The notes beneath the pieces are model-generated. The model saw only the letters and a list, made by a program, of their open reading frames with translations, was not told the origin of the DNA and made no database searches. This document shows, piece by piece, positions 6,194-57,418 of a stretch of 64,000 bases of DNA (its first letter is position 1; every line of letters starts with the position of its first letter). A program made the translations under genes and the position numbers. The stretch is taken from positions 25,358,001 through 25,422,000 of the forward strand of contig CM069162.1 in assembly GCA_035221665.1 (NCBI GenBank). Reading direction: 5' to 3'. The stretch is from Okamejei kenojei. Lineage: Eukaryota.

Positions 6194-6248
6194 GGGGTGG
6201 GAGATTTGCAACCTTCACGTGGTCCGCCCTGTTTCAACAAATGCAATC
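6194..6248 (+). ncRNA. Minimal HDV-like (CPEB3-type) self-cleaving ribozyme, copy 1
   Basis: Nested double pseudoknot read directly: P1 GGGGUGG(6194-6200)/CCGCCCU(6224-6230) with G1-U wobble; P2 GAU(U)UGCA(6203-6210)/UGCAAUC(6242-6248); P3 ACC/GGU around L3 UUCACGU(6214-6220); G at 6231 for P1.1; tiny P4 stub; J4/2 CAAA with candidate catalytic C at 6238. Confidence 0.8.
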
Positions 6249-6338
6249 AACCCGGCGTGCTCAATCAAATAAGATCAAATAGAACAAGTTGTCCGACAAC
6301 TTTAGGCTATGCACGCCATACGCAAGAAGAAGAAGAAG
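6194..6338 (+). mobile_element. Ribozyme-headed short retroposon (SINE-like), copy 1
   Basis: Starts at ribozyme G1 and ends in a (GAA)n tail at 6324-6338. Imperfect direct repeat CAGGTAGAT (6185-6193) / CAGGTAAT (6340-6347). Homologous to 19626-19736. Confidence 0.8.
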
Positions 6339-19530: not shown

Positions 19531-19625
19531 GTTCCATCTTCACCCATAGCACACACAGAAACCTTGGAATTCATTCGGACTAAAAAAAAGACACAAAGTG
19601 CAGGTGTAAGATAGTGGGTCTGGCT

Positions 19626-19736
19626 TCTTCTTTCGTGTGGCAACTTGTTCTATTTGATCTTCTGTTTGTGCACATCGAGTTGATTGCATTAGTCAAAACA
19701 GGGCGGACCACGTGAAAGTTGCAATCTTCCACCCCC
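19626..19736 (-). mobile_element. Ribozyme-headed short retroposon (SINE-like), copy 2
   Basis: Exact 13-bp TSD AGTGGGTCTGGCT at 19613-19625 and 19737-19749. GAA-type tail at the left end. Inserted into a Penelope-derived repeat. Confidence 0.85.
19682..19735 (-). ncRNA. Minimal HDV-like (CPEB3-type) self-cleaving ribozyme, copy 2
   Basis: Minus strand reads GGGGUGG AA GAUUGCA ACU UUCACGU GGU CCGCCCU G UUUUGA CUAA UGCAAUC: perfect 7-bp P2, 7-bp P1 with G1-U, P3 ACU/GGU, J4/2 CUAA. Confidence 0.82.
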
Positions 19737-19920
19737 AGTGGGTCTGGCTGCATCTCTGGAGAACATGGGTAGGCAACGTTTTGGGTTGGGACCCTTCTTC
19801 AGACTGAGTGTGTAGGAGGTAGAAAGTTGTAAGGAAGAGGCGGGGCAAAGCCTGGCAAGTGATAGGTGGATACTGGTAAAGAGGGTTTGACTGGCAGATG
19901 GTTGGAAAAAGAACAGAGAT

Positions 19921-46406: not shown

Positions 46407-46740
46407 GCACTGCTGGACTAAATTCTTCGGAGTTTGAAATAAAGGAAGGGTGATCTTATCGAAATAACTTAGGGGACATGGTTGGATGAATGTTGAGATC
46501 ATTCTGCATATGGGAAGGTCTTGAGCAAGGAGAGAAACATCGTTATGAGATGTACCTCAGTACACGTGACAATAAACTAAGCTAAACTAAACTAAACTAA
46601 GATGGTGCTCTCTGAAAACAGAGGCGTACAGGAACCTCTTGCATTTGAATCTCTGGGATTTGGAGCCCCAGAGGTTTGTGGAGATTATTGGAGAAGGTTG
46701 ATAGGTAATCGTTTTGAAGCATCAAAGAACTGAGTGTAGA

Positions 46741-46920
46741 CACAAAATGCTGGAGTAACTTTGTGGGTGGGGCAGCATCTGGAGGGAAGGAATGGGCGAC
46801 GTTTCGGGTCGAGACCCTTCTTCGACCCGATTCCTTCCCTCCAGAGATGCTGCCCCACCCACAGGTAACTCCAGCATTTTGTGACTACCTTCGAGATAAA
46901 CCAGCATCTGCAGTTCTTTC
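46741..46920. mobile_element. Foldback (inverted) Penelope-derived repeat
   Basis: Arms at 46741-46793 and 46830-46883 are reverse complements around a hammerhead remnant. Confidence 0.8.
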
Positions 46921-49265: not shown

Positions 49266-49750
49266 TAGAAACATAGAAACATAGAAAATAGATGCAGGAG
49301 TAGGCCATTCGGCCCTTCAAGCCTGCACCGCCATTCAATATGATCATGGCTGATCATCCAACTCAGTATCCTGTACCTGCCTTCTCTCCATACCCCCGAT
49401 CCCTTTAGCCACAAGGGCCACATCTAACTCCCTCTTAAATATAGCCAGTGAACTGGCCTCAACTACCTTCTGTGGCAGAGAATTCCAGAGACTCACCACT
49501 CTCTGTGTGAAAAATGTTTTTCTCATCTCAGGCCTAAAAGACTTCCCCCTTATCCTTAAACTGTGAACCCTTGTTCTGGACTTCCACAACATCGGGAACA
49601 ATCTTCCTGCATCTAGCCTGTCCAACCCCTTAATAATTTTGTACGTTTCTATTAGATCCCACCTCAATCTTCTAAATTCTAGCGAGTACAGGCCGAGTCT
49701 ATCCAGTCTTTCTTCATATGAAAGTCCTGACATCCCAGGAATCAGTCTGG
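49266..49750 (-). mobile_element. Young CR1 LINE 3' fragment
   Basis: ORF 49344-49733 (GLSYEERLDRLGLYSLEFRRLR..TQRVVSLWNSLPQ) plus (TAGAAACA)n tail. Confidence 0.93.
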
Positions 49751-50334
49751 TTGGTAAAAGGGCTGTGTCTTTTCTGAATGTATCATAAAGATTTTGTTAC
49801 TGTTTACAAATTTGCAAATGAGACAAAACCCGTGGGGAAAGGGGACAGCGAGGAGGATAGCAGTAGGCTTTAGGGAAATATGAAGAGGCAGGTTGAACAG
49901 ATGGACGTGGCAGATGAAACTTAATGCTGGGAAATGTGAAGTGTTACATTTTGATGGGAAGAGCAAGAAGAAAGGATAACAAAGTGGAGGTGGCAATTAT
50001 TAAAAGGATATAAAAACCCTGGGATCTGTGGATACATGTGTGTGGAAACACAAGGAACTGCAGATGCTGGTTTAGAAAATAACACGATGTGCTGGAGTAA
50101 CTCAGCGGGTCAGGCAGCATCTCTGGAGGGCATGCATAGAGGCATTTTGGGTCAGGACCCTTTTGCAGACTGCTAGTAGGAGAGGGTAGAAATCTGGAAA
50201 AGAGATGGGGCAAGACATGTGTATGGTTTGCTGAAAGAGCAGGACGGGTTGCAAAGTTAGGATGATATTTTATGAAACTGGTTCATCCACAATACAGTAA
50301 TGGGTGTTGTGTTTTAGAAATATGGGAAGGACTT

Positions 50335-56075: not shown

Positions 56076-56530
56076 GGAATCTCTCCTATTTCGAAATGTT
56101 GGCGACAAACTGTCCCTGTAATTGATACGAGCACGTTAAGCTGACCCTTTCCCTGAACTAATCCTTTGGAATTGACACAGAGTTTACCAAGAGATTTAAC
56201 CAATGCAACCTCCGTTTGCTATCAATTTACTAAATCACTGCAAGATGTAATCTTGGGCAGTATCTGTCCCTTTCTCAATTCTGTTGTTTAAAAATGGCTA
56301 CAACCACCCATTGTTCCAACCGTTTCTTTGAATGTAGAAATGCAGCACTGGGGTTATGACTAATTCCTGCCTCACAAGATGGTCAAACTCCAACCGGGCA
56401 GACCATTGCACAAACAAATGCCCTTAATTTGGTCCGAATGATCAATTTCAGAGAATTTGTGGTAAGCTTTCTCCGAGGCTGTCAGACTGGTCAGAATAAC
56501 ATAAGAAGTAGTTTGATGCAAGGGAATAAA

Positions 56531-57418
56531 GGGAACTCCATCATCAAGTTCGCTGACGACACCACTGTAGTGGGACGTATCACTGATGGGGATGAGTCGG
56601 AGTACAGAAGAGAAATCGAGCGACTGTCCATATGGTGCCAGCACAATAACCTGGCCCTCAACACCAGCAAAACCAAGGAACTGATTGTGGACTTTGGAAG
56701 GAGTAGGATGGGGACCCACAGTCCTGTTTATATCAACGGGTCGATGGTTGAAAGGGTCAAGAGCTTCAAATTCCTGGGCGTGCACATCTGTGAAGATCTT
56801 TCCTGGTCCGAGAACACAGATGCATTATTAAGAAAGCTCATCAGTGCCTCTACTTCCTGAGAAGATTACGGAGAGTCGGTCTGTCAAGGAGGACTCTCTC
56901 TAACTTCTACAGGTGCACAGTAGAGAGCTTGCTGACCGGTTGCATCGTGGCTTGGTTCGGCAACTTGAGTGCCCTGGAGCGGAAAAGACTACAAAAAGTA
57001 GTAAACACTGCCCAGTCCATCATCGGCTCTGACCTCCCTTCCATCGAGGGGATCTAACACAGTCGCTGCCTCAAAAAGGCTGGCAGCATCATCAAGGACC
57101 CACACCACCCTGGCCACACACTCACCTCCCCGCTACCTTCAGGTAGAAGGTACAGGAGCCTGAGGACTGCAACGACCCGGTTCGGGAATAGCTACTTCCC
57201 CACCGCCATCAGGCTATTAAACATGACTCGGACAAATCTCTGAACATTAATACCCCTCCATCTGTTATTTGCACTTTATTAATTTATTAATTAATGTGTG
57301 TATTTAAGTATATAATTGTAGTCAATGCCTACTATGTTCTGTTGTGCTATGCAAAGAAAGAATTTCATTGTCCTGTCAGGGACACATGACGATAAACTCT
57401 TTTGACTTGACTTTGACC
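56531..57418 (+). mobile_element. Young 5'-truncated Rex1/Babar-clade LINE
   Basis: IIKFADDTTVVGRITDGDESEYRREI..NNLALNTSKTKELIVDF..FKFLGVHI; after a frameshift near 56830, YFLRRLRR..FYRCTVES..PSGRRYRSL..NSYFPTAIRLLN; TTGAC-type tail. Confidence 0.92.

Follow-up and report, generated by a model that had tools for sequence, protein, structure and literature searches.

Background

Short LINE derivatives headed by a ribozyme are already known, namely NARTc, RIME and SIDER of trypanosomatids and the R2 SIDEs of Drosophila. The trypanosomatid elements derive from L1Tc/ingi and consist of the two ends of an Ingi-group LINE, 5' and 3', fused together, with an HDV-like ribozyme that cuts at +1 and with dispersed insertion (PMC3383444, PMC4035085). 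In L1Tc/NARTc a promoter and the ribozyme occupy the same 77 nt (PMC3383444). The R2 SIDEs and R2/R1 hybrid SIDEs of Drosophila join a 5' ribozyme to a LINE 3' end, have no Pol III promoter and are ascribed to internal deletion or a template jump (PMC3414825).

A ~135-nt element of similar bipartite build was found in a 64,000-nt stretch of a skate genome (the window). NARTc, RIME and SIDER ribozymes keep P4, show a 77-nt signature and have been assayed, whereas the skate head is 54 nt long, lacks P4 and is predicted. L1Tc, the partner of NARTc, has RNase H, unlike the LINE partner of the skate element, and the host here is an animal with a 2.76-Gb genome and more than 8,000 copies. The Drosophila R2 SIDEs differ in being site-specific to 28S rDNA, in their long ribozyme and R2/R1 machinery, and in occurring in few copies (PMC3414825).

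Six LINE clades are given with 5' ribozymes by Kojima 2018, R1, R2, R4 and RTE as well as Ingi and LOA, and Vingi is absent from them in the accessible part of that paper, which counts Vingi among the clades with bipartite derivatives (PMC5786205). Vingi LINEs are described as having a single ORF and no RNase H (PMC13708176), the ORF being 993 aa long (PMC3708506), and as prone to internally deleted derivatives (PMC5786205). The partner LINE resembles Vingi in a single ~1,000-aa endonuclease/RT ORF without RNase H, and in giving rise to internally deleted derivatives such as those of Vingi-1_EE (PMC5786205, PMC13708176, PMC3708506). X12_LINE is a relic of Vingi retained in the human genome (PMC5753468).

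Minimal HDV-like and theta ribozymes share with the skate head a double-pseudoknot core without P4. They come from metagenomes and phages, where they lie beside tRNAs, whereas here the fold heads an animal LINE and its mini-element; nearly 99% of those surveyed were in Caudoviricetes, and the survey leaves their origin open (PMC10879173). Multi-copy HDV-like heads with varying upstream DNA are regarded in a review as probable parts of retrotransposons (PMC6765202). Mammals carry the CPEB3 ribozyme as a conserved element within an intron (PMC8233481); the accessible parts of PMC8233481 and PMC10919898 name no transposon origin for it. The listings and passages covered contained no link between Vingi and ribozymes, no account of the ~135-nt family and no derivation of the CPEB3 ribozyme from a LINE; metazoan Ingi/Vingi heads, or the family itself, may already be treated in Ruminski 2011, Kojima 2011, Webb 2009, Repbase or Dfam.

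Insertion of the element in the window

The first-pass annotation had described a 111-bp insert between exact 13-bp direct repeats, ending in GAA repeats and with its 5' junction within 1 nt of a predicted cleavage site. Comparison of the two repeats (window 19613-19625 and 19737-19749) agreed with this description: they are identical and enclose 111 bp, the remnant tail at 19626..19640 ends in GAA, and one G (19736) separates the duplication from G1. The features of the locus are listed below.

19737..19749, no strand: target-site duplication (TSD), 5' side of the element, 13 bp, exact
19736, minus strand: single additional G between TSD and G1, untemplated or junction noise
19682..19735, minus strand: predicted P4-less HDV-like ribozyme, 54 nt, G1 = 19735
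19664..19681, minus strand: remaining LINE 5' end, family positions 55-72, common to the full-length LINE
19641..19663, minus strand: junction region joining the LINE 5' and 3' ends, family positions 73-95
19626..19640, minus strand: remnant of the LINE 3' tail with terminal GAA repeats, family positions 96-119 missing
19613..19625, no strand: TSD, 3' side of the element, its first two bases overlapping the phase of the GAA repeat
19584..19806, no strand: older host repeat split by the insert, many copies in the window
6194..6330, plus strand: second family copy in the window, older subfamily, full tail, J4/2 = CAAA

When the insert was deleted, both flanks aligned without a break to further window copies of the host repeat, indicating that the 13-bp duplication arose on insertion.

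The window copy is not a typical family member. It is without 24 nt of tail (family positions 96-119), which form a 7-bp hairpin in most copies, and carries C-to-T changes at family positions 19, 41 and 62; within the head it differs from the family majority at position 19, where a P3 C-G pair becomes U-G, and at position 41. The junction left by the 24-nt deletion has two exact occurrences genome-wide, and the deletion was rejected as a subfamily marker because its junction is confined to these two copies. Having lost most of its tail, the window copy is a dead-end variant.

A predicted P4-less HDV-like ribozyme at the 5' end

Parsing of the minus strand gave a nested double pseudoknot of the HDV-like pattern, with P1, P2, P3, P1.1 and the G1 wobble. 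A 6-nt linker stands where P4 would be, and in J4/2 C19692 is followed by N-purine-A. The parse upheld the claim that every core element of the HDV double pseudoknot is there, with almost no P4. The predicted parts, all on the minus strand, are as follows.

19729-19735/19700-19706: P1, 7 bp, with wobbles G1-U and U5-G
19720-19726/19682-19688: P2, 7 bp, all Watson-Crick
19717-19719/19707-19709: P3, 3 bp, one wobble
19710-19716: L3, UUCACGU, 7 nt
19699: P1.1 G, judged only from the G after P1 and a C in L3
19692: catalytic-position C in J4/2 CUAA

A pairing descriptor for the HDV fold, written post hoc once the element was known, scored the window head at 12.96. Across 767 dinucleotide shuffles of the window (both strands), two matches reached 12.9 or more and 199 reached 10.5 or more. 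The sole other descriptor match in the window was the second family copy at 6194, with a score of 10.9.

An Infernal comparison with the Rfam HDV/CPEB3 models, as proposed in the first-pass annotation, gave the insert no support: the Rfam scan of the window returned no ribozyme match, and nothing at this site. MFE folding of the 54-nt core was unremarkable (z = -0.28), as would be expected since the predicted fold is a pseudoknot. ARAGORN found no tRNA in the insert, and the best match of the insert to an A/B-box consensus had 4 mismatches and was equalled in 131 of 300 shuffles, in agreement with the claim that tRNA A/B boxes are absent. Rfam, ARAGORN and box matching gave no Pol III head with A/B boxes derived from a small RNA (tRNA, 5S or 7SL).

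A family of thousands of copies with a fixed 5' end

The family unit is ~135 nt long, non-coding and flanked by TSDs. The searches proposed earlier for copy number, for 5' ends fixed at G1 rather than scattered and for TSDs across copies all came out in favour of a mobile family. In the skate's own genome (G000, 2.76 Gb), an exact 20-mer of the head gave 7,619 matches and an exact 23-mer of the tail 8,147, both lower bounds, so that at least 8,147 copies exist; the reversed 20-mer and 23-mer gave none.

The first 70 tail matches on contig C1 (L302-L371) were taken as a sample, and all 70 were short elements. The alignment starts at G1 in 59 of them and within 4 nt of it in 68; the two truncated copies start at position 8 and at position 17. 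TSD calls were obtained for 56 copies, with lengths of 8-17 bp and a mode of 11-13. Among 55 near-full copies, 18 have the TSD edge at G1, 21 show an overlap of 1-2 G and 8 leave a gap of 1 nt. The opening letters of most TSDs are AG, AA, AT or GA, which keep the phase of the GAA tail. A further 30 copies picked by the 3' half mostly start at G1 among those listed; they were selected at 100% identity, and the conclusions on 5' ends rest on the 70 copies of C1.

The base preceding G1 in 68 copies was T in 35, A in 13, C in 12 and G in 8. This lack of a G excess at -1 gives no sign of a copied cap, and a cap-derived G at this position was dropped as unsupported, G being present in only 8 of 68. 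The T immediately 5' of G1 in 35 of the 68 C1 copies (L302-L371) may reflect a preference in top-strand cutting.

Mean divergence from the column majority was 6.2% over the 70 C1 copies, of which 35 still pass the descriptor. The two main subfamily-diagnostic sites of the head, positions 8 and 45, are both unpaired; about nine sites that split subfamilies lie in the 80 nt downstream of the head. Copies that carry 3 extra nt after position 61 form a subfamily (L121-L127, L135) concentrated on the smaller contigs C24, C30 and C38.

At least half of the sampled family words were present in public runs of seven organisms. Loose contig ends accumulate at G1, with unrelated letters upstream, in runs of three organisms (42, 26 and 9 contigs), in contigs that are uninformative on strand, start or expression. 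Putative RNA contigs continue across G1 into the flanks and are uninformative on cleavage.

Origin of the element from the two ends of one LINE

An upstream walk led to L186, a 3.1-kb copy that begins at head position 10 and has a TSD. Its broken single ORF contains an RT (E 9e-29), an endonuclease (weak Pfam match, E 0.011) and a C-terminal Cys/His motif. L409, a full-length copy from G1, is 87% identical to L186 and likewise codes for the endonuclease, the RT and the Cys/His motif, and the two share both ends with the short element. The short element corresponds to bases 1 to ~72 of the LINE joined through a short junction to its final ~45 bases, in which the ORF stop codon lies. A 430-nt intermediate, L096, combines the head, the C-terminal coding end of the LINE, the same tail and a TSD; it came from a pattern that excluded the middle of the short element (119 matches, mostly small indel variants). 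The tail is common to 19 LINE fragments (L142-L160), two of which share its first part only. No intact ORF of the partner LINE was found in G000.

Thirty loci were selected with a 5' stretch confined to the LINE, and in 15 of them the head lies in line upstream. About three of these 15 LINE copies reach G1-G2 and most start at positions 8-14. Across L272-L301, headed LINE copies mostly begin just past the 5' strand of P1 and short copies begin at G1. An inverted head was present in 3 of 19 loci picked by the LINE 3' end, and the 30 loci picked by the LINE-only 5' stretch showed about 15 inversions and 4 direct fusions (BLAST rows, judged by eye). In L143, L152, L157, L174, L180, L187 and L279-L301 the first 70-470 nt are inverted and joined to a distant 3' part. 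The breakpoints of classical twin priming meet, whereas in these copies the 3' part is distant.

The first-pass annotation had proposed a SINE retrotransposed in trans. A non-autonomous retroposon was supported, but a SINE with a borrowed head, and an RTE or R2 partner, were judged very improbable, since both ends are shared with one LINE of Vingi architecture (L186, L409, L096). Judged by sequence, the mini-element is an internally deleted LINE of the SIDE type, both ends coming from one LINE.

The best relatives of the LINE are mostly ~1,000-aa proteins on ~3.2-kb contigs, and the named ones are mostly from arthropods, with one fish. An intact relative (P0001) has 1,019 aa and is 75% identical over the RT. 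No RNase H domain was found in 20 scanned relatives or in the five ORF pieces of L186. By architecture (length, endonuclease/RT, no RNase H), the partner LINE is likely of the Vingi type. The RT tree, a quick tree like the others here with SH-aLRT support only, places the relatives in a well-supported clade among rows that hold no named Vingi, Ingi or RTE reference. PDB matches to the RT were only to distant R2 and group II intron RTs. The tail of the mini-element matches the partner LINE, in a comparison that took in no RTE reference.

HDV folds at the 5' ends of related LINEs

The descriptor was applied to 80 metagenome loci of LINE relatives (253 kb). Matches with scores of 12.5-14.5 were found in eight loci from five families, against about 0.04 matches of at least 12.5 expected from the shuffle rate. 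All eight are in sense orientation, 56-107 nt upstream of the estimated ORF start, and no antisense match occurred in the 253 kb. About 15 of the 80 loci contain an ORF start with upstream DNA, and five of those are without a clear fold. L198 was added by Rfam and a relaxed scan, and L259, weakly, by the relaxed scan. On a quick tree, ribozyme-bearing loci fall in three of the four subclades of a 52-row clade. Most relatives with an HDV fold keep P4, whereas the window family is without it.

Covariation in P1, P2 and P3, a further check proposed earlier, was found across LINE families and was nearly absent within this family alone. Over 10 heads, P1 and P3 showed 89% paired cells and 19 double-sided changes, and their covariation was 0.611 against 0.232 in shuffled alignments (reached in 0 of 500) and at most 0.176 when slid, scores that come from an unfitted MAFFT alignment and are inflated by descriptor-selected and near-duplicate rows. 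Compensatory changes were also seen in the parsed P2 helices of the metagenome heads. Degenerate or expanded HDV-like features were noted by eye before the ORF in L192 (about 420-600), L193 (18-110), L202, L259 and L264; L192 may carry a long insertion in L3.

CPEB3-like heads on sister LINEs

A search of G000 with the CPEB3 ribozyme model RF00622 gave 42 matches among 59 scored candidates, 30 of them over the gathering cut-off of 35 bits and the best at 66.8 bits. None of 14 control genomes had a match, and neither did the window copy, L081 or L277. The 30 passing loci fall into about four families. In one of them the head belongs to a full-length 3.1-kb LINE with an exact 10-bp TSD abutting G1 (L404:347-3454, G000:C14); a second heads another LINE (L399/L405), and a third (L375, L376) shares P4 letters with RF00622 and has no ORF match downstream. 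In L374, 38 of the first 41 core positions and 12 of the last 14 are those of the Rfam consensus. Apart from these G000 loci, L223:1106-4292 is a full-length LINE of the same clade with an ATC-repeat tail and a 14-bp TSD ending beside G1, and the L223/L224 heads pass RF00622 at 55.6 bits. Sister LINE families with CPEB3-like heads in G000 are represented by L374-L394, L404 and L405. L404, L405 and L223, which are all the CPEB3-like-headed LINEs placed on the tree, lie in one subclade (SH-aLRT 98), apart from the partner LINE of the window element.

The fourth of these families is a second P4-less mini-element of ~175 nt, found at six loci, with a CPEB3-like head, TSDs and a GAA tail. It keeps every core element, and its linker resembles that of the window family.

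about 1512-1690 in the oriented loci: second mini-element (L395-L398, L400, L402)

The window head is like the mammalian CPEB3 ribozyme in its fold, in an L3 of 7 nt and in the GU that follows P1, but is itself without a match to RF00622, which the sister LINE heads match at up to 66.8 bits, P4 letters included. Homology of the sister heads with the CPEB3 ribozyme appears well supported by letter identity in helices that are free to vary. The direction would probably be from LINE to host. We consider it rather probable that a 5' HDV-like ribozyme is general in Vingi LINEs, that one lineage reduced it to a P4-less core and gave rise to thousands of mini-elements in an animal genome, and that the CPEB3 ribozyme is a domesticated 5' end of a sister Vingi.

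Proposed mechanism and alternatives

Our preferred reading, to which a probability of about 0.8 is assigned, is that the ~135-nt element consists of fused LINE ends, that its predicted head likely cuts at G1 and that the LINE protein would then copy the element. The P4-less HDV-type head would release the element from host read-through transcripts by cutting at G1 and would leave an uncapped end. The protein of the partner LINE would recognise the 3' tail in trans and copy the element into new sites, with priming aided where the GAA tail shares microhomology with the nicked target, and second-strand joining aided by microhomology of 1-2 G. A template jump may have given rise to the mini-element, since copies of the partner LINE often have their 3' part joined to the initial few hundred bases of the same LINE.

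An internal promoter, too, would give fixed 5' ends, since truncation of a 135-nt RNA is rare. The same bipartite Vingi-type element could therefore have its 5' end set by an internal Pol II promoter, as with Pr77 in L1Tc/NARTc, the P4-less fold being slow or dead and serving as a protein-binding or exonuclease-blocking cap. Promoter and ribozyme do overlap in L1Tc/NARTc (PMC3383444), and an HDV fold is described as protecting R2 templates in a cap-like manner (PMC13708176); moreover, insertion is dispersed, with no fixed host promoter, P4 is gone here while most relatives retain it, and LINE copies are often without the 5' strand of P1. We nevertheless regard this explanation as unlikely. G is not in excess at -1, 62 of the 70 sampled copies and all eight metagenome matches retain the catalytic-position C, the second P4-less mini-family keeps its entire core, and ribozymes of the minimal P4-less kind have been described as a class (PMC10879173). 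Another reading is a SINE that has an unrelated head and is moved by an RTE LINE, or one of the Pol III type, with the HDV fold arising by chance. It would agree with the GAA-type tail and TSDs of more than 10 bp, which recall RTE-related retroposons (PMC6007223), and with the lack of support from Rfam and MFE folding at the insert, but is very improbable and largely refuted by L186, L409 and L096, as both ends are common to a LINE with relatives of Vingi length and domain make-up, A/B boxes are missing, and the fold is rare in shuffles and recurrent at related LINE 5' ends.

If fused LINE ends with a cleaving head are the correct reading, ribozyme-headed short retroposons, known from trypanosomes and the rDNA of flies, would also occur as a dispersed high-copy family in a large animal genome, and minimal P4-less HDV-type ribozymes would gain a eukaryotic context and thousands of natural variants. 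Vingi, which has already served in RNA-based gene insertion (PMC13708176), would join the LINEs that bear ribozymes. With the sister heads, a direct test of where the memory-linked CPEB3 ribozyme came from becomes possible. Should thousands of copies be able to cleave, intronic copies on the sense strand could cut host pre-mRNAs.

Other features of the window

Several window copies of the host repeat at 19584-19806 have a hammerhead-like core. This abundant repeat is presumably Penelope-like. Further sites of the repeat lie at 2298, 43444, 45350, 58852 and 46740-46884, and long palindromes formed by some of the copies produce spurious miRNA matches in Rfam. Reverse-transcriptase ORF fragments from other LINEs are present at 49344-49796 and 56360-56860.
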